NCBI GenBank assembly: GCA_015492245.1
Contig: WGFM01000017.1
Span: 38,693-102,692, forward strand
DNA: 64,000 nt
Source: Deltaproteobacteria bacterium
GTDB taxonomy: Bacteria > Desulfobacterota > GWC2-55-46 > DRQE01
Reading direction: 5' to 3'
Under the pieces are notes generated by a model. The model ran no database searches and was not told the origin of the DNA. It saw nothing but the letters and a program-made list of their open reading frames with translations. Made by a program: the position numbers and the translations under genes. How positions within the stretch are numbered: position 1 is the stretch's first letter; the number at the start of each line of letters is the position of its first letter. This document shows, in pieces, positions 25,081-44,676 of this stretch.

Positions 25081-25158
25081 TGGCGTCCCCAGGGGGATTT
25101 GAACCCCCGTTACCGCCGTGAAAGGGCGGTGTCCTTGGCCAGGCTAGACGATGGGGAC
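25081..25158 (-). tRNA. tRNA-Glu (anticodon UUC), CCA encoded
   Basis: Reverse complement GTCCCCATCGTCTAGCCTGG…CCGCC-CTTTCAC-GGCGG…GGTTCAAATCC…GGGGACGCCA. Cloverleaf with anticodon loop CUUUCAC. Confidence 0.9.
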
Positions 25159-25173
25159 GCAGGTGAGAAAGAC

Positions 25174-25249
25174 TGGTGAGCCGCCCGGGACTCGAACCCG
25201 GGACCACCTGCTTAAAAGGCAGATGCTCTACCAACTGAGCTAGCGGCTC
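25174..25249 (-). tRNA. tRNA-Lys (anticodon UUU), CCA encoded
   Basis: Reverse complement GAGCCGCTAGCTCAGTTGGTAGAGCATCTGC-CTTTTAA-GCAGG…GGTTCGAGTCC…GGCTCACCA. Confidence 0.9.
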
Positions 25250-25444
25250 AAACCATACGCATCTATACCCCTAATTATCCCCTGCAGGATAATTACATAT
25301 CTTTATCACAGAGAATCAACGCTTGTCAAACATTTTGTATCCCACCACGGAAGGTTACATATTTTTGTTGACAATTCTGTCCTCTATAAAGTAAATTTAT
25401 AGACTCCACAGGCGAAACCCTTGCAAAAAAAAGGAGAATAACCC

Positions 25445-37392: not shown

Positions 37393-38394
37393 ATGGCAAA
37401 GAAGATAAAGACAGCAGTCATAGGGGTGGGCCACTTCGGAAGGCTCCACGCCACAAAATTTAAAGAGCTCGATGGTGTAGAGCTCGTTGCCGTGGTGGAT
37501 GTGGACAGAGAGCGTGCCCGAGCAGTGGCAACAGAGCTTGGCACCACTGCGTACACAGACTACCATGAGCTCACAGACAGGGTGGATGCAGTAAGTATTG
37601 TAACACCAACGGCTACACACTACAGGATAGCAAGCCACTTTCTCTCCAGCGGTGTGGATGTGCTGATAGAAAAGCCCATGACAGCAAACCCAGAGGAGGC
37701 TGAAAAACTCATAAAGGAGGCTGAAAAACGAGGGGTTGTGCTTCAGGTGGGGCTCCTTGAAAGGTTCAATCCGGCTGTCAGGCTCATGCGTGAAAAGGTG
37801 AGCACACCACTCTTTATAGAGTCGCACAGGCTTGCGCCCTTTTCCACCAGGGCACTCGATACGGATGTGATATACGACCTTATGATACACGATATAGACA
37901 TGGTGTTGAGCCTTGTGGACTCGGATGTGGAGATGGTGGATGCCGTGGGTGTACCTGTAATATCCGGAAAGATAGACATAGCCAGTGCAAGGATAAGGTT
38001 TAAAACAGGGTGTGTGGCAAATATAACTGCGAGCAGGGTCTCGAGGGAGAAACAGCGCAGAATAAGGGTCTTCCAGCCCTGCACATATCTATCCATAGAC
38101 TATGACACCCAGCGTGCCACCATAATGCACCTGAAACAGAAAGAGGATAGCCGCCCCACACTTGAGAAGGAAAGCCCCAGGATAAGGAAGGGAGACCCCC
38201 TCATGGAAGAGATAAGGGCATTTGTGGATGCCTCTCGCAAAGGGCTGCCACCAGCGGTGCCAGGCACAGAGGGAAAGAGGGCGCTCGAGGTGGCAAAGAA
38301 GATAAAGGGCTCAATAAAGCTCTCCCTCGAGAAGGCGGGGCACCATCTCGAAGGTGTGCCAGACCTTTCACAGGTGATCACCAGTGCGGACTGA
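37393..38394 (+). CDS. Gfo/Idh/MocA family NAD(P)-dependent oxidoreductase embedded in the lipid A cluster (GnnA-like candidate)
   Basis: 333 aa with an N-terminal Rossmann motif (AVIGVGHFGRLH) and the EKP motif. Sits between lpxA and lpxB. Confidence 0.8.
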   Translation: MAKKIKTAVIGVGHFGRLHATKFKELDGVELVAVVDVDRERARAVATELGTTAYTDYHELTDRVDAVSIVTPTATHYRIASHFLSSGVDVLIEKPMTANPEEAEKLIKEAEKRGVVLQVGLLERFNPAVRLMREKVSTPLFIESHRLAPFSTRALDTDVIYDLMIHDIDMVLSLVDSDVEMVDAVGVPVISGKIDIASARIRFKTGCVANITASRVSREKQRRIRVFQPCTYLSIDYDTQRATIMHLKQKEDSRPTLEKESPRIRKGDPLMEEIRAFVDASRKGLPPAVPGTEGKRALEVAKKIKGSIKLSLEKAGHHLEGVPDLSQVITSAD

Positions 38395-38406
38395 ACCTTA
38401 AGGACT

Positions 38407-39552
38407 ATGACGAGAACCATCCTTATGATAAGCGCAGAGGCATCAGGAGACCTTCACGGAAGCTCGCTCATAAAGGAAATCAAGAAGATAGACCCCTCTG
38501 TAAGGATAAAGGGCATGGGCGGCCAAAAGATGCTTCAGGCAGGGCTCGAGGGTATAGACTCCTCACAGCTTGCAGTGGTGGGGCTACAGGAGGTGGCAGA
38601 AAAACTCAGAGACATAGTAGGGGCATACAGAAGACTGAAGCGCCTTCTTTACGAAGAAAGATTCCACTGTGTTGTGCTCATAGACTATCCCGAGTTCAAC
38701 CTGAGGTTCGCAAGGCTTGCAAAAAAAAGAGGAGTGCCTGTAGTATATTACATAAGCCCACAGGTATGGGCATGGAGAAGGGGCAGGACAAGAAAGATTG
38801 CCAGGGTGGTGGACAAGATGCTCGTGGTCTTTCCCTTCGAAGAGACCATCTACAGGGAGGCCGGTGTGGATGTGGAGTATGTGGGGCATCCGCTGGCCGA
38901 GAAGGCGACCCTCAATGTCTCGAAGGAAGAGGCAAGGGAATCCCTCTCTCTTGAAAGAGAGGGTGTGGTGGTCTCGGTTCTTGCAGGAAGCAGAACCGAT
39001 GAGGTGAAAAGGCTTCTTGCCCCCATGCTCAAAGGGGTAAGGCTGTTTAAACAAAGGGTGCAGAAAGATGTGGCCATCCTGATACCTGTGGCAGATACAA
39101 TACAGGATGAACTCATAAAAGAAGAACTCGGGGCAACAGGCACCACAGCAAGGATTGTGAGGGGAAGACTCTACGAGGCCCTGAGGGCATCGGACATTGC
39201 CGTTGTTACCTCGGGTACCGCCACCCTTGAGACCGCCCTTATCGGAACCCCCATGGTAATCGTATACAGGGTCTCGCCACTTTCTTATCTTGTTGGAAGG
39301 TTCCTTGTGGGGGTAAAATATATAGGGCTGCCCAACATAGTGGCAGAAGAAGGGGTGGTGCCAGAGCTCATACAGGAGGATGTAACCCCTGAAAAGATCG
39401 CAGCCCATATGTCGCACCTGTTCACCGATGAGAAGGCAAGAGCCGGTATAACCGCTCGCTTCAAGGAAATAAGAAGGGTTCTTCTGAAAGACGGCTCTGC
39501 CCCCAGAAGGGCTGCACAGATAATATACCGGATAGCCTGTAAGGGAGACTGA
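38407..39552 (+). CDS. lpxB: lipid-A-disaccharide synthase
   Basis: 381 aa. N-terminus …MISAEASGDLHGS… is typical of the LpxB GT-B fold. Confidence 0.9.
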   Translation: MTRTILMISAEASGDLHGSSLIKEIKKIDPSVRIKGMGGQKMLQAGLEGIDSSQLAVVGLQEVAEKLRDIVGAYRRLKRLLYEERFHCVVLIDYPEFNLRFARLAKKRGVPVVYYISPQVWAWRRGRTRKIARVVDKMLVVFPFEETIYREAGVDVEYVGHPLAEKATLNVSKEEARESLSLEREGVVVSVLAGSRTDEVKRLLAPMLKGVRLFKQRVQKDVAILIPVADTIQDELIKEELGATGTTARIVRGRLYEALRASDIAVVTSGTATLETALIGTPMVIVYRVSPLSYLVGRFLVGVKYIGLPNIVAEEGVVPELIQEDVTPEKIAAHMSHLFTDEKARAGITARFKEIRRVLLKDGSAPRRAAQIIYRIACKGD

Positions 39553-39556
39553 CCCT

Positions 39557-41317
39557 ATGGCCCTTTATCTGAGACTTCTAATATTCCTGCGCCCCTACTG
39601 GTTAAGGCTGACGCTGGCCGTGGCGTGCATGATAATCTTCGCCATATCCAATGGCCTGATGGCATACCTCATAGGGCCTGCCATAAAACTCCTTTTCGAC
39701 AAGGAGAAGATACCTGCCCAATACGGCCTGCCCGATATAACGATATTCTCTGCACAGAACATGCAGGTTCTTCTTCCTCTTGCCATAATCGTGGTGGCCA
39801 TTGTAAGGGGTGTAAGTTCTTACGGCAATACCTACTACATGGGATATGTGGGGCAGCGTGTCATAGCAGACTTAAGGAAGGCCCTTTATGCCCACATACT
39901 GGAGCTTCCATACGAGTTCTTCGTAAGAAACCCTGCAGGTGGGCTGACATCAAGGCTCACAAACGATATAAACCTCCTTGAGAAGGCAACGGCAGACACC
40001 CTGATACACGCCTTCAAGCAGGGGCTATCGGTGGTGGTGCTCGCTGTAATAATACTCATGATGGACTGGCAGCTTGCACTAATAGGAGGCATTGCCTTCC
40101 CCCTTGCCATATATCCTGCCATGAGGTTCGGCAGGAAGATAAAGAACATCTCCCGCAAGGGACAGGTAACCCTTGGTGATATGGCATCTGTAATACACGA
40201 GGCATTGAAGGGTATAAGGGTTGTAAAGGGTTTCGGCATGAAGGAATACGAGACCAGAAAGTTCAGCCAGGAGAACGAACGGTTTGCCCGCTACAGGACA
40301 CGGGCGATAAAGATAAGGGGAATATCGAGCCCCTTTATGGAGACCTTTGCGGCCACAAGTTTCGCCCTCACCATATGGTATGCAAGCTACAGAATATGGC
40401 AGGGCACACTCACCCCCGAGGCATTCATAACATTCTTTGCGGCCATAGTCATGCTTTATCAGCCTGTGAGGGTACTTAACGGCGTATACCTGAACCTCCA
40501 GCAGGGCCTCGGCTCTGCCCAGAGGATATTCGAGATACTCGATACCCCCACAGAGGCCATAAAAGACGGCACAAGGATATGCACCGGTATCATAGATGGT
40601 ATAGAGTTCATAGATGTATCCTTCAGTTATGGGGAGAAAGAGGTGCTCAGGGGCATAAACCTCAAGGTAAAGAAAGGCGAACGGGTTGCCATAGTGGGCT
40701 CAAGCGGGGTGGGCAAATCCACTCTTGTAAACCTTGTCCCAAGGTTTTATGATGTTACAGGTGGGGCCATACTCATAGATGGTGTGGACATACGGGAGTT
40801 CACCCTTGCCTCGCTTCGCAGCCAGATAAGTATAATATCCCAGGATGTGATACTCTTTAACGACACGGTGAGAAACAACATAGCCTATGGCAGACCCGAG
40901 GTGAGCGAGGAAGAGGTAATAAGGGCAGCGCTTTCAGCCAATGCACACCAGTTTATAGAGGAACTGCCACAGGGATACGACACCGTGATAGGTGAAGGTG
41001 GCATAAGGCTTTCAGGAGGCCAGCGCCAGCGCCTTTCCATCGCACGGGCCATACTGAAAGATGCGCCCATGCTTATAATGGACGAGGCGACATCCTCGCT
41101 CGATGCAGAGTCTGAAAGGGCGGTTCGGGAGGGGCTTAGAAACCTCATGGAGGGCCGCACCACCTTCGTAATAGCCCACAGGTTCTCCACCATAAAAGAC
41201 GCCACCAGGATAGTGGTGCTCTCTGGTGGAACCATAGTGGAAGCGGGCAGCCACGAAGAACTCATAGAGAAGAGTGGGGAGTACAGAAGGCTCTATTCCA
41301 TACAGTTTCAGGGATAG
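39557..41317 (+). CDS. msbA: lipid A export ABC transporter permease/ATP-binding protein
   Basis: 586 aa. Six-TM exporter domain and an NBD with Walker A GSSGVGKST and signature LSGGQRQR. Confidence 0.85.
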   Translation: MALYLRLLIFLRPYWLRLTLAVACMIIFAISNGLMAYLIGPAIKLLFDKEKIPAQYGLPDITIFSAQNMQVLLPLAIIVVAIVRGVSSYGNTYYMGYVGQRVIADLRKALYAHILELPYEFFVRNPAGGLTSRLTNDINLLEKATADTLIHAFKQGLSVVVLAVIILMMDWQLALIGGIAFPLAIYPAMRFGRKIKNISRKGQVTLGDMASVIHEALKGIRVVKGFGMKEYETRKFSQENERFARYRTRAIKIRGISSPFMETFAATSFALTIWYASYRIWQGTLTPEAFITFFAAIVMLYQPVRVLNGVYLNLQQGLGSAQRIFEILDTPTEAIKDGTRICTGIIDGIEFIDVSFSYGEKEVLRGINLKVKKGERVAIVGSSGVGKSTLVNLVPRFYDVTGGAILIDGVDIREFTLASLRSQISIISQDVILFNDTVRNNIAYGRPEVSEEEVIRAALSANAHQFIEELPQGYDTVIGEGGIRLSGGQRQRLSIARAILKDAPMLIMDEATSSLDAESERAVREGLRNLMEGRTTFVIAHRFSTIKDATRIVVLSGGTIVEAGSHEELIEKSGEYRRLYSIQFQG

Positions 41318-41326
41318 GTAAGGTTT

Positions 41327-41976
41327 ATGCTCGAAGAACTTAAACTTAGGATTGTTACAACCCTCGGGGCATGGTTCATAAGGCTGTTGCGCCTTACGAT
41401 ACGCATAGAGTATGTGGACTTCGATCTCTACAGGGAGAGGCTTGCCTCTGGCAGGCAGAGCATCGTGGCGTTCTGGCACGGAAGGCTTCTGATGATGCCC
41501 TATGCCTCATACCGTGAGGGGATGACCGTGCTCGTAAGCCTCCACAGAGATGGAGAGCTCATTGCCCGTACGATAGGACACTTCGGTATCAGGGCGGTGA
41601 GGGGCTCTACCTCGAGGGGAAGCCTTGGCGGCCTAAAGGGGCTTCTTAAGGCCATAAAAGATGGCAGAGACATTGCCATAACACCTGATGGCCCCCGGGG
41701 GCCTCTCTTCAGGGCCCAGCGCGGCATAATAGACATAGCAAAAAAGACAGGGCTGCCCATAATACCACTTGCATTCAGTGCCAGTAAAAAAAAACACTTA
41801 AGAGCTGGGACCGCTTCATAATACCCTATCCCTTCTCAAGGGGTGTCTTCATATGTGGCAGACCTATTACAGTACCTGGCACTGCCACAGAGGAAGAGCT
41901 TGAAGAGAAAAGAGAGGAGCTCGAGAAAACACTCATGGAGATTACACACAGGGCAGACAGATACTTCGACAGATGA
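41327..41976 (+). CDS. DUF374 (lysophospholipid-acyltransferase-like, kdtA-associated) protein interrupted by a -1 frameshift in an A9 tract
   Basis: Frame 1 (41327..41821) carries the DUF374 core incl. ITPDGPRGP. After the A9 run (41786-41794) the conserved C-terminus (…SWDRFIIPYPFSRGVF…) continues in the -1 frame to a stop at 41974-76, overlapping the kdtA ATG. An A10 tract would restore a 216-aa protein. Confidence 0.65.
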
Positions 41977-43301
41977 TATATATCCTCTACGATATAATCC
42001 TCCATATCAGTGTCATGGTGCTTCTGCCCTATTTTATGTTCAAGATGCTTTCAGAGGGAAAGTATCGCACAGGCATACCAGAAAGGTTTGGCATCTACAG
42101 AGACGAAAAGCTACGCGCCCTCCAGGGTGGTGATGTGGTGTGGTTCCACGCCGTAAGCGTGGGAGAGACGAAGGCGGTGCTTCCGCTCCTGAAACTCTTC
42201 AAGGAGAGGTATCCAGAAAAGAAGGTGGTCTTCTCTACCATCACATACACGGCCAACAGGGTGGCAAAGAACGAAGAGCCCCTGCTCATAGATGCCCTCC
42301 TATACTTTCCCTTAGACCTTTCATGGGTAGTCAAGAGGGCTGTTGCAAGGCTCAGGCCATCGCTCTTCGTGGTGGTGGAAAAGGAGGTGTGGCCAAATAT
42401 CATACATACCCTGCACGAAAATGGGGTGCCCATAGTGGTGGTAAACGGCACTGTTTCAGAAAGGTCCTTTGGAAGGTATAGAAAACTCGGCTTTTTCTTC
42501 ACCGGCATATTCTCAAGCATAACCCGCTTCTGCGCACGCACCGAGGATGATAGGGTGCGTGCCGTGGCACTTGGTGTGCCAGCCCAGAGGGCTGTGGCCA
42601 CAGGTAACCTCAAGTTCGATATAGAGGATGTGGAGCTGAAAGAGGCTGACAGGGAAACCCTCAGAGAAGAGCTTGGCATAGGACAGGATGACCCCGTGGT
42701 AGTGGCAGGAAGCACCCATGCAGGTGAAGAAGAGGCACTCATCGGTGTCTTCAAAAGGCTCAAAGAGGGGTTTCCAGCACTTAGGCTCATACTCGCCCCA
42801 AGACACCCGGAAAGGTTCGATGAGGTGGCTGCCCTCTTGAAGGCCTCGGGACTGAACTTTAAAAGAAGGACGAACAAAGAAAGGGCCGGTGAGAGGACGG
42901 ATGTGGTGCTCCTCGATACCATAGGGGAGCTTACAGCCCTCTACGGCCTTTCCACGGTGGCGTTCGTTGGCGGAAGTCTTGTGGAAGGGGTGGGCGGACA
43001 CAACCTTCTTGAGCCTGCCGTATTCTCAAAGCCTGTTGTATACGGAGGGCATCTCAAGGGCTACCTCTATATGGCAGAACTTCTCGAGAAAGAAGGCGGT
43101 GGCATAAGGGTTACAGACAGAGAGGGCCTCTTTTCTGCCCTCTCATCCCTCCTGGCCGACAGAGGACTCTGCAAAGAGGCCGGAATGGCAGCCCGCAGGG
43201 TGGTCGATAAAAACCGTGGTGCCACAGAGAAGACCATGAGCCTTATAGAAGAGGTGATACAGGAGCACTCCCTCTTGAGAGACGAAAGAAGAGATGCATA
43301 A
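41973..43301 (+). CDS. kdtA: 3-deoxy-D-manno-octulosonic acid (Kdo) transferase
   Basis: 442 aa. N-terminal membrane anchor, …VWFHAVSVGE… motif, GT-B C-terminal domain. Confidence 0.9.
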   Translation: MIYILYDIILHISVMVLLPYFMFKMLSEGKYRTGIPERFGIYRDEKLRALQGGDVVWFHAVSVGETKAVLPLLKLFKERYPEKKVVFSTITYTANRVAKNEEPLLIDALLYFPLDLSWVVKRAVARLRPSLFVVVEKEVWPNIIHTLHENGVPIVVVNGTVSERSFGRYRKLGFFFTGIFSSITRFCARTEDDRVRAVALGVPAQRAVATGNLKFDIEDVELKEADRETLREELGIGQDDPVVVAGSTHAGEEEALIGVFKRLKEGFPALRLILAPRHPERFDEVAALLKASGLNFKRRTNKERAGERTDVVLLDTIGELTALYGLSTVAFVGGSLVEGVGGHNLLEPAVFSKPVVYGGHLKGYLYMAELLEKEGGGIRVTDREGLFSALSSLLADRGLCKEAGMAARRVVDKNRGATEKTMSLIEEVIQEHSLLRDERRDA

Positions 43302-44358
43302 CCTTCCCCATCCATACAGGTTGGTCCTTTGGCCCTTGTCCGCCCTCTATGGGGCCATCGTAAGGTTCCGTAACCTTCTCTACCTCAAGGGTGTACTTAA
43401 AAGCACAAGGCCCTCTGGTGTAAGGATTATCTCTGTGGGCAACCTGACCGTTGGAGGAACTGGCAAGACCCCTGTAACCATCCATCTTGCAGCCTGTCTT
43501 AAAGATAGGGGCATGAGGGTTGCCATACTCAGCCGTGGCTACAGAAGGACCACCAGGGGTGCAAGGGTGGTCTCTGATGGAGAAAGGCTCCTTATGAGTC
43601 CTCAGGAGGCAGGCGATGAGCCCTGTCTTATGGCACAAAGACTCAGGGGGGTGCACCTTGTGGTATCGGAGAAGAGAACAGCAGGTGCAGAGCTTCTTAA
43701 AGAGAGGTTCGGGCCAGATGTGATACTCCTCGACGATGGGTTCCAACATCTTGCCATAAAGAGGGACCTCGATATTGTGCTCATAGATGGCAGGCAGCTC
43801 TCCGAAAATCCCCGGGTTCTTCCCTCCGGCCCCCTGCGCGAACCCCCTGACTCGCTCAAGAGGGCAGACATCATACTCTTTAAAGACCACACACACCTAC
43901 CCCGCCCCTTCGCACCCTACATTGAAGGTAAACCCCGATGGGGCTTTTCCTACAGGGCTGGCAGATTGCTCGATGAAGGGTTCAGACCCCTTGGCGGTGC
44001 AGGACTCTTGAAGGATAGAAGGGTTGTGGCGGTCTGTGGTATAGCAGAGCCCGACTCCTTCTTTACCACCCTCGAGGGCTGTGGCGCCAGGGTGGTGGAA
44101 AGGGTTGGCCTTCCAGACCACCACCTCTACACCGAAGCAGATGTGGCAACACTTGTGGATAGAGTCGAAAAAACCGGGGCAGAGTGGGTCCTGACCACAG
44201 AGAAGGACGGGGTCAAGCTTAAGGATTGCAAGGGAGTAGAGGCTCTACCCCTCAGGATACTCACCATAGATGTGGCGATAGAGGAAGAAAAACCCTTTGT
44301 CTCAAAGGTGCTCGAGCTTTCTGGTATTGAAACTGCTGGCAGTTGTGATAAAATATAG
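43294..44358 (+). CDS. lpxK: tetraacyldisaccharide 4'-kinase
   Basis: 354 aa with P-loop GNLTVGGTGKTP, typical of LpxK. Confidence 0.85.
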   Translation: MHNLPHPYRLVLWPLSALYGAIVRFRNLLYLKGVLKSTRPSGVRIISVGNLTVGGTGKTPVTIHLAACLKDRGMRVAILSRGYRRTTRGARVVSDGERLLMSPQEAGDEPCLMAQRLRGVHLVVSEKRTAGAELLKERFGPDVILLDDGFQHLAIKRDLDIVLIDGRQLSENPRVLPSGPLREPPDSLKRADIILFKDHTHLPRPFAPYIEGKPRWGFSYRAGRLLDEGFRPLGGAGLLKDRRVVAVCGIAEPDSFFTTLEGCGARVVERVGLPDHHLYTEADVATLVDRVEKTGAEWVLTTEKDGVKLKDCKGVEALPLRILTIDVAIEEEKPFVSKVLELSGIETAGSCDKI

Positions 44359-44579: not shown

Positions 44580-44676
44580 GGAAGGGGAAAGGGCCCGGTG
44601 GCCCTGCGGGTCTTCAAAACCCGTCGGTCCCTCTAAGAAAGGGGCTGGAGGGTTCGACTCCCTCCTCCTTCCGCCA
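44580..44676 (+). tRNA. selC: tRNA-Sec (selC), anticodon UCA, CCA encoded
   Basis: 97 nt. 8-bp acceptor (GGAAGGGG/CTCCTTCC), 6-bp D-stem with a 4-nt loop, anticodon loop CUUCAAA, long variable arm, 5-bp T-stem (GAGGG-TTCGACT-CCCTC), discriminator G. 3' half is near-identical to E. coli selC. Confidence 0.88.

Follow-up and report, generated by a model that had tools for sequence, protein, structure and literature searches.

The lpxJ locus and its two reading frames

The window analysed here is a 64,000-nucleotide (nt) stretch of DNA from a member of the Desulfobacterota (contig WGFM01000017.1), and its plus strand carries a compact cluster of lipid A genes. Judged from open reading frames (ORFs) and the Pfam families of orthologues, the cluster (38407-44358) consists of lpxB (38407-39552), msbA (39557-41317), lpxJ, kdtA (41973-43301), and lpxK (43294-44358). 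Our subject is lpxJ, a DUF374 gene whose reading frame is broken at a run of nine adenines (A9; 41786-41794). No homopolymer elsewhere in the window is as long. The 0-frame ORF of lpxJ (41327-41821) encodes 164 amino acids (aa) and ends in SASKKKHLRAGTAS. Around the tract this frame reads AGT AAA AAA AAA CAC TTA AGA GCT GGG ACC GCT TCA TAA, with Lys154 to Lys156 encoded by the A's and a short tail (41795-41821) made up of HLRAGTAS and the TAA at 41819-41821. A first-pass annotation of the same DNA had counted ten codons between the run and the stop; there are eight sense codons before the TAA.

In the -1 frame, the coding sequence goes on from 41794 as residues 157 to 216, reads KKTLKSWDRFIIPYPFSRGVFICGRPITVPGTATEEELEEKREELEKTLMEITHRADRYFDR, and ends at a TGA (41974-41976) that overlaps the ATG of kdtA at 41973 (ATGA). 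A TAA at 41785-41787 blocks this frame upstream, such that it is open only from 41788, which confines any frame change to 41788-41821. A single additional A (A10) restores a 216-aa product. On these points, that is, the A9 that breaks the DUF374 frame, the -1 frame that runs into the kdtA start, and the intact protein given A10, the first-pass annotation was right. It had also regarded A AAA AAA AAC as the slippery context, which is out of phase in the window gene. When codons are counted from the start of the ORF, the heptamer of the X_XXY_YYZ type that is in phase with the 0 frame is A_AAA_AAA (41788-41794). In silico, mRNAs with tracts of A7, A10, or A13 yield the full-length product, those with A9 or A12 yield the truncated form, and those with A8, A11, or A14 run into a stop within two codons. 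Base composition alone (the window is 52% guanine plus cytosine [GC]) leads one to expect 0.33 runs of at least nine A's or T's per 64 kb, such that a single A9 is not improbable. The weight of the tract therefore comes from its conservation and not from its rarity by chance statistics within the window.

Several lines of evidence predict that the window gene encodes a lipid A secondary (late) acyltransferase of the LpxJ family. Its first 156 residues (41327-41794) contain the Pfam DUF374 domain (PF04028) without interruption, with a match of 94.5 bits against a gathering cut-off of 26.8 that is restricted to residues 63-126. Searching Pfam and NCBIfam with the C-terminal piece alone returned no match. 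Because the Pfam model ends at residue 126, the family membership of this piece is taken from homologues, and these show that it is part of the DUF374 family, as the first-pass annotation had proposed. The DUF374 family is that of LpxJ, an alternative lipid A 3'-secondary acyltransferase in bacteria without LpxM (PMC6148475). In Rickettsia typhi LpxJ, each of the substitutions W60A, H61A, D86A, D132A, W172A, and D173A abolishes activity (PMC6148475), and the six residues map at near-constant offset to W50, H51, D75, D121, W161, and D162 of the window protein. All six are invariant in 44 full-length homologues, as are P167 and G173. The first four precede the run. The remaining two, W161 and D162, are encoded by TGG GAC at 41806-41811 (R. 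typhi W172 and D173) and can be reached only after a frame change. Since the last residue before the shift is K156, the 164-aa product lacks both.

Structural modeling and gene order point to the same enzyme. An AlphaFold model of the repaired 216-aa protein has a predicted local distance difference test (pLDDT) score of 86.6 and a predicted template modeling score of 0.84. The segment after the shift supplies two core strands and a long C-terminal helix, and it is the best-defined part of the model (pLDDT of ~96). The top Foldseek matches in the PDB are PatA, LpxM, and PlsC (E of ~1e-5, template modeling score of ~0.5). Furthermore, the order lpxB-msbA-lpxJ-kdtA-lpxK is shared by the window, its relatives, and Nitrospira. 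The unedited product, without the Trp-Asp pair, the two core strands, and the helix, is presumably inactive. It follows that full-length, active LpxJ would be obtainable only through a net -1 frame change inside A9. Peptides predicted from the -1 frame are SWDRFIIPYPFSR and GVFICGRPITVPGTATEEELEEK in the window, with LFASWDR and FMVPYPWSR-type counterparts in Nitrospira.

Conservation of the broken frame

The break is not peculiar to one assembly. When the closest proteins were sought in a database of 5.8 billion proteins, the five nearest clusters (98, 84, 84, 80, and 70% identity) were all 164 to 166 aa long, with remoter homologues of ~220 aa. The DNA of these closest relatives was drawn from NCBI metagenome-assembled genomes (MAGs), ENA hydrothermal-vent and REYS20 metagenomes, and one Logan assembly. 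In every case AGT AAA AAA AAA C was present with its phase unchanged, and a conserved ORF continued after it in the -1 frame. The comparison of orthologous tract lengths that the first-pass annotation had called for thus gave the same answer in all close relatives. The nearest named full-length homologues come from MAGs of Thermodesulfobacteriota or "Deltaproteobacteria," and relatives come from hydrothermal-vent metagenomes.

Patterns of substitution indicate that both parts of the gene are maintained as coding sequence. Among the lineages of the window clade, synonymous divergence (dS) reaches 0.6 to 2, and A9 is nonetheless unchanged. The ratio of nonsynonymous to synonymous divergence (dN/dS) is 0.13 to 0.28 for the 0-frame part and 0.09 to 0.26 for the downstream part when it is read in the -1 frame, versus ~1 to 3.5 when the same downstream DNA is read in the 0 frame. 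Moreover, third codon positions of the -1 frame take 220 of the 351 substitutions. By contrast with this constraint, the 0-frame tail varies from 1 to 57 codons across the family, and neither its length nor its sequence is kept. Judged by comparison of sequences, then, the break has become fixed and is maintained by selection, and it does not reflect an error or the decay of the gene.

The same arrangement extends far beyond the window clade. Three loci with 51 to 58% identity to the window protein by tblastn (L035, L057, and L064) have TCA AAA AAA AAA at the equivalent Ser-Lys-Lys-Lys position, and they too need a -1 correction. Because tblastn splits broken genes, this search of genome contigs missed the closest relatives, and the three loci were betrayed by match lengths not divisible by 3. 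We then scanned metagenomes for A9 followed, after 10 to 14 nt, by a pattern coding for the conserved Trp-Asp-x-Phe-h-h-Pro. Among the matches listed (at least 120 stretches), 112 were DUF374 genes with nine or more A's. Of those 112 genes, 109 were one A short, 3 were in frame, and none had one A too many. All of the broken homologues collected (n = 121) were likewise one A short, none had one A too many, and every one kept a pure run of nine or ten A's. They fall into three configurations: NNY AAA AAA AAA C, the window type, with A9 in phase 0 (38 loci); TCA AAA AAA AAC, with A9 in phase 2 (72 loci); and TCA AAA AAA AAA N, with A10 in phase 2 (11 loci). Clustering of the broken genes gave 80 groups at 90% identity and 29 at 70%, and the most divergent pair shared 34% identity. 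The phase-2 A9 clade corresponds to Nitrospira/Nitrospirota, and a large phase-0 clade corresponds to Syntrophorhabdaceae, including sequences labelled Syntrophorhabdus aromaticivorans.

As controls for ascertainment, we sampled Syntrophorhabdaceae and Nitrospira by protein similarity alone, independently of any DNA pattern. Nearly all Syntrophorhabdaceae matches of at least ~65% identity were truncated. Three lysines stood at the break in 55 of 55 truncated clusters versus 14 of 51 in-frame relatives; the other in-frame relatives had SRKK, SRKR, TRKR, SRHR, and so on. In Nitrospira, where in-frame relatives mostly have STKQ, SSKH, or SAKR, nearly all of the ~50 truncated clusters end in SKKN (that is, TCA AAA AAA AAC), one is an A8-type SKKT cluster, and the SKKS ending that would mark an A8G variant was absent from them. 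All 15 contigs traced from three truncated Nitrospira-type proteins contained TCA AAA AAA AAC. In-frame relatives vary at this site and broken ones keep at least nine A's, which argues that the protein does not need three lysines and that the broken gene is tied to the run. A Nitrospira-type protein, P0200 (179 aa, 43 member sequences), has a tail of SKKTLREL, which implies A8, two A's short or, relative to A7, one too many; it would be the sole member to break the rule of one missing A.

The tract behaves differently on short and long time scales. Tract length differed in none of 26 pairs of loci with at least 95% nucleotide identity, and one species had A9 in all ten independent samples. Over longer distances, in-frame alleles of Nitrospira carry pure runs of A7 (KK), A10 (KKK), or A13 (KKKK) that are never interrupted by AAG. 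In-frame alleles at this site have A10 in L001 (JACRLF010000038.1, 3442-3451), L209, and L212, A13 in L210, and A7 in L211. Intact in-frame alleles with such an uninterrupted, slippage-prone run should, from their sequence, give rise to some out-of-frame transcripts. At one further locus, L165 (Ga0154370_1059, minus strand, ~2718-2745 of the reverse complement), an A13 run joins ...GLLREIKKKK to TFKSWDAF.... This DUF374 gene is missing ~45 residues, including the essential Asp of the PDGP motif, and looks like the result of a deletion between A-rich sites or of an assembly collapse.

Proposed decoding of the A run

From the selection acting on the downstream frame we infer that lpxJ is very probably decoded through slippage of the polymerase or the ribosome. 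The first-pass annotation had left three explanations unranked: an error in sequencing the homopolymer, a phase-variable pseudogene, and expression through transcriptional or -1 ribosomal slippage. The evidence favours the last, leaves the pseudogene poorly supported, and leads us to reject the error. We consider slippage of RNA polymerase to be the probable main route, with some reserve. The polymerase would realign on the nine A's, and a fraction of the mRNAs would gain one A. These A10 messages would be translated normally into the 216-aa enzyme, and unedited A9 messages would give the 164-aa product. Ribosomal -1 slippage on the in-phase A_AAA_AAA, which would give the same protein (SKKK-T), may contribute. 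The net outcome would be substoichiometric LpxJ from the lpxB-msbA-lpxJ-kdtA-lpxK operon.

Several features of the 121 broken loci are consistent with a role for the polymerase. The run is never shorter than nine, it is found in two codon phases, and all nine A's are kept, including positions that lie outside any single heptamer. That no gene has one A too many is the direction that either insertional polymerase slippage or -1 ribosomal slippage could correct. Bacterial RNA polymerase slips efficiently on nine A's or T's, about the length of the RNA-DNA hybrid, a property used by Thermus dnaX (PMC5009743), and poly-A cassettes of 7, 9, and 11 A's give 10, 40, and 63% frameshifting in E. coli (PMC3711429). 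Our searches for accessory signals gave little. Upstream motifs resembling a Shine-Dalgarno (SD) sequence were depleted (2.7% of loci versus 24% of control windows), RNAalifold on 75 diverse sequences found no conserved pairs downstream or upstream of the run, and no upstream hairpin in the nascent RNA, a stimulator of polymerase slippage, was conserved. Likewise, the downstream fold of the window itself is ordinary (z = -0.81), and Rfam had no match at the slippage site.

It is also possible, though in our view unlikely, that programmed -1 ribosomal frameshifting on A_AAA_AAA (A_AAA_AAC in the Nitrospira type) of unedited A9 mRNA is the main route. Each of the three configurations includes an X_XXY_YYZ heptamer that is in phase, the window encodes a tRNA-Lys(UUU) that pairs equally well in both frames, and insertion sequence (IS) elements use these same heptamers (PMC3711429, PMC4066793). 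Stimulatory signals, such as an SD-like motif upstream or a stable fold 5 to 9 nt downstream, are usual for ribosomal frameshifting, yet at low levels they are not obligatory. Nevertheless, this route fits poorly with the lack of an upstream SD, the depletion of such motifs, and the failure to find a structure that is conserved between clades or a window fold that is out of the ordinary. Furthermore, no single heptamer needs both the ninth A and the serine-codon A of TCA, yet both are kept, and the SKKS ending of A8G variants is missing from the truncated Nitrospira clusters. In addition, A_AAA_AAG, the most efficient heptamer in E. coli, never occurs at the site. Less probable again is a phase-variable contingency locus, in which replication slippage would switch the gene between A9 (OFF) and A10 (ON) and selection on ON cells would preserve the downstream frame. 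Such switching is known for Neisseria meningitidis lpxL1, through insertions and deletions in poly-A and poly-G tracts (PMC2667671), and the pure A7, A10, and A13 in-frame alleles of Nitrospira, its probable A8, and the many changes of state on the tree would be in keeping with it. Yet a switch would not be expected to leave the tract stable among near-identical loci, throughout the ten samples of one species, and in every assembly obtained for the window species and its relatives. Nor would it be expected to produce the ratio of 109 OFF to 3 ON in the scan, where none had one A too many, or the 8 to 10% DNA divergence of in-frame A10 alleles from their nearest A9 loci. Moreover, A9 would leak full-length product anyway, and there would therefore be no true OFF state.

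The explanations that remain beyond slippage and phase variation have, even when combined, only a slim chance of being correct. One is that the gene is a nonfunctional remnant, or that the 164-aa protein is functional and the downstream segment is untranslated. Gene callers do report only the 164-aa ORF, and the Pfam domain lies wholly within it. However, dN/dS already contradicts this idea, with coding-type purifying selection on the -1-frame segment equal to that on the 0-frame part. That segment also holds core elements of the fold and invariant residues whose R. typhi counterparts are required for activity, and the 0-frame tail is unconserved, which together make a remnant very improbable. 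Even less credit can be given to a sequencing or assembly error that hides a true A10, or to a split gene with an independently translated second half. Homopolymers are classic error sites, and the second ORF does abut kdtA. Against an error, the same tract length recurs across independent projects, assemblers, and samples: A9 is found in assemblies made independently for the same species and for four related lineages, and the break itself recurs in more than 100 metagenome contigs that are unrelated. At other loci, assembly correctly recovered A10 and A13 tracts that are in frame. A general homopolymer error is further rejected by an A8 run at 38721 that is in frame in an intact lpxB and by G7 and C7 runs that were not seen to break ORFs in the window. 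We rejected the split gene because start codons are lacking. In 96 of the 121 loci, no start codon at all precedes the essential Trp in the -1-frame ORF, and in the window this frame opens only at the run, from 41788. A second A8 run in the window (25425-25432) is apparently intergenic and directly upstream of a GGAG-ATG start region.

An argument can be made against our interpretation on several grounds, some of which concern slippage in general and others the preference for the polymerase. We infer decoding from selection, as read in comparative assembly sequence. The scan demanded A9 and would miss broken genes with shorter runs, a gap that only the protein-based samples cover. On a neighbor-joining tree of 138 tips, Fitch parsimony counts no fewer than 27 switches between the broken and the in-frame state (versus 41 for shuffled tips), a count that is probably inflated by the poor resolution of a tree built from a 210-aa protein. 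The state is thus evolutionarily labile, and "programmed" could therefore mean tolerated and locked in rather than regulatory. With respect to the polymerase, any run of at least nine A's holds an in-phase A_AAA_AAN heptamer that the ribosome could use, and for the window type (A9 in phase 0) both models predict exactly nine A's. In the five-lineage window clade, RNAalifold also predicts a hairpin at 41806-41866, including CCCUUCUCAAGGGG, that starts ~12 nt past the run and would count in favour of the ribosome. The signal (-15.7 kcal/mol, column-shuffle z of -1.97) is weak but nonzero; several pairs are broken, and compensatory changes are lacking. The hairpin is absent from other clades, and part of it is unavoidable because of the Pro...Arg-Gly codons (CCN...CGN GGN). 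Finally, PMC6260861 reports that E. coli RNA polymerase requires a longer tract when it is poly(A) than when it is poly(T).

Operon context and comparison with known systems

The position of the break within the cluster suggests consequences for the neighboring gene. The lipid A genes are tightly packed (38394-44358), with gaps of 4 to 9 nt between lpxB and msbA and between msbA and lpxJ, an overlap of 4 nt between lpxJ and kdtA, and an overlap of 8 nt between kdtA and lpxK (43294-43301), which suggests one translationally coupled operon. The kdtA (waaA) gene, whose orthologous product matches PF04413, encodes a transferase of 3-deoxy-D-manno-oct-2-ulosonic acid (Kdo), and in the window no SD-like sequence precedes its ATG. 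Ribosomes that stay in the 0 frame of lpxJ terminate 151 nt earlier than those in the -1 frame. Among window-type loci, the end of the -1-frame ORF overlaps the start of the next gene in 32 of 33 cases. Because the -1-frame stop overlaps the kdtA start, translation or reinitiation of kdtA may be coupled to the frame change. In addition, since the truncated product is expected to be inactive, the break would lower the yield of active LpxJ from the operon.

Beyond being tolerated, the A run could be a regulatory device in which slippage efficiency, as affected by temperature, nucleoside triphosphate pools, or elongation rate, sets both the amount of active LpxJ and the reinitiation of kdtA, which encodes an essential enzyme, thereby tuning acylation and Kdo addition after transcription. 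We regard this idea, under which evolution would have arrived at such a device more than once, in Nitrospira, Syntrophorhabdaceae, and vent thermophiles, as speculative and on balance doubtful. The stability of the tract over short times and its changes over longer ones could be explained by adaptive tuning of expression or by a ratchet. Under the ratchet, a gene that is one A short can no longer lose its run, while in-frame genes are free to do so.

Two sets of RNA genes elsewhere in the window can be noted. Genes for tRNA-Glu(UUC) and tRNA-Lys(UUU) adjoin at 25081-25249 on the minus strand, the latter of which would decode the AAA codons of the tract. Closer to the cluster, in an ORF-free gap of ~530 nt between lpxK and a polyprenyl synthetase gene, a tRNA-Sec gene with a TCA anticodon lies at 44580-44676 on the plus strand (Rfam, 71.9 bits); the organism therefore probably makes selenoproteins.

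To our knowledge, few bacterial chromosomal genes outside mobile elements depend on recoding, with prfB, dnaX, Mg-chelatase, and a few others as examples. If our interpretation is true, it adds an outer-membrane biogenesis enzyme whose full-length form needs slippage, in an event that has been conserved, or has recurred, among nitrifying Nitrospira, syntrophic Syntrophorhabdaceae, and lineages of hydrothermal vents, all of them environmentally important groups. There are also practical implications. Annotation pipelines call a truncated "DUF374 protein" of 164 to 210 aa in which the Trp-Asp pair is lost, and the gene comes to resemble a pseudogene. As a result, genome-based predictions of lipid A acylation (penta- versus hexa-acyl) will wrongly score these taxa as being without a late acyltransferase. 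More generally, the family offers a large natural data set for studying how a homopolymer prone to slippage gets locked in, with in-frame relatives that vary freely and broken ones that cannot lose the run. A full-text search of the literature for LpxJ or DUF374 together with frameshifting or slippage found no description of the event, and an earlier mention is not fully excludable.

Some known systems resemble lpxJ in one respect while differing in how the frame is controlled. The -1 frameshift sites of E. coli dnaX and of IS3 and IS1 elements (A_AAA_AAG, A_AAA_AAA, A_AAA_AAC) share its heptamer class and the direction of the shift. Those sites, however, have an upstream SD, a downstream stem-loop or pseudoknot, or both, and often six or seven A's, whereas lpxJ has no conserved stimulator and a run of at least nine. 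N. meningitidis lpxL1 is, like lpxJ, a lipid A late acyltransferase gene that is interrupted at a poly-A tract, and its interruption changes lipid A acylation (PMC2667671). It differs in being an ON/OFF switch at the level of DNA that varies in both directions among isolates of one species; in lpxJ, lineages are fixed for the out-of-frame length, which is also conserved between species. The GeneTack cluster "Tetraacyldisaccharide kinase / acyltransferase" (PMC3711429) also involves lipid A genes with A/T-rich sequence near a frame transition. There, the transition lies where lpxK meets an adjoining acyltransferase gene in AT-rich genomes, and the explanation put forward by the authors is translational coupling, perhaps with programmed frameshifting. 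We considered whether it is the same event and rejected this, since the cassettes that were tested differ from the internal SKKK site.

The closest parallels are homopolymers in chromosomal genes that are corrected by slippage. In Buchnera and Blochmannia, conserved poly(A) frameshifts are rescued by transcriptional slippage, with ~30% full-length transcripts reported (Tamas et al. 2008; Wernegreen et al. 2010, as summarised in PMC3017870). As in lpxJ, a single-base frameshift in an A homopolymer of an otherwise intact gene is kept between species, and the downstream frame is undegraded. In those endosymbiont genes the full-length product comes from a mixed pool of mRNAs; for lpxJ, such a pool is our proposal. 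Their cases are scattered over many genes of AT-rich, reduced genomes dominated by drift, whereas lpxJ is affected at one site in one gene family, in free-living organisms with moderate-to-high GC genomes from several phyla and more than 100 lineages. The dnaX genes of Thermus thermophilus and Chlorobi (Larsen et al. 2000; PMC5009743, PMC3711429) are, like lpxJ, chromosomal housekeeping genes with a homopolymer of 9 or 10 (A/T), no RNA stimulators, and two products. The roles of the frames are reversed: in dnaX the 0-frame product is full length and slippage yields a useful shorter subunit, whereas in lpxJ the recoded product is full length and the 0-frame product lacks catalytic residues. In the Mg-chelatase genes chlD and bchD (GeneTack, PMC3711429; PMC9227772), a conserved poly-A run of 7 to 11 in a nonmobile metabolic gene likewise needs a -1 correction. 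They belong to a different protein family and have been validated with reporters in E. coli, whereas lpxJ is known from comparative sequence.

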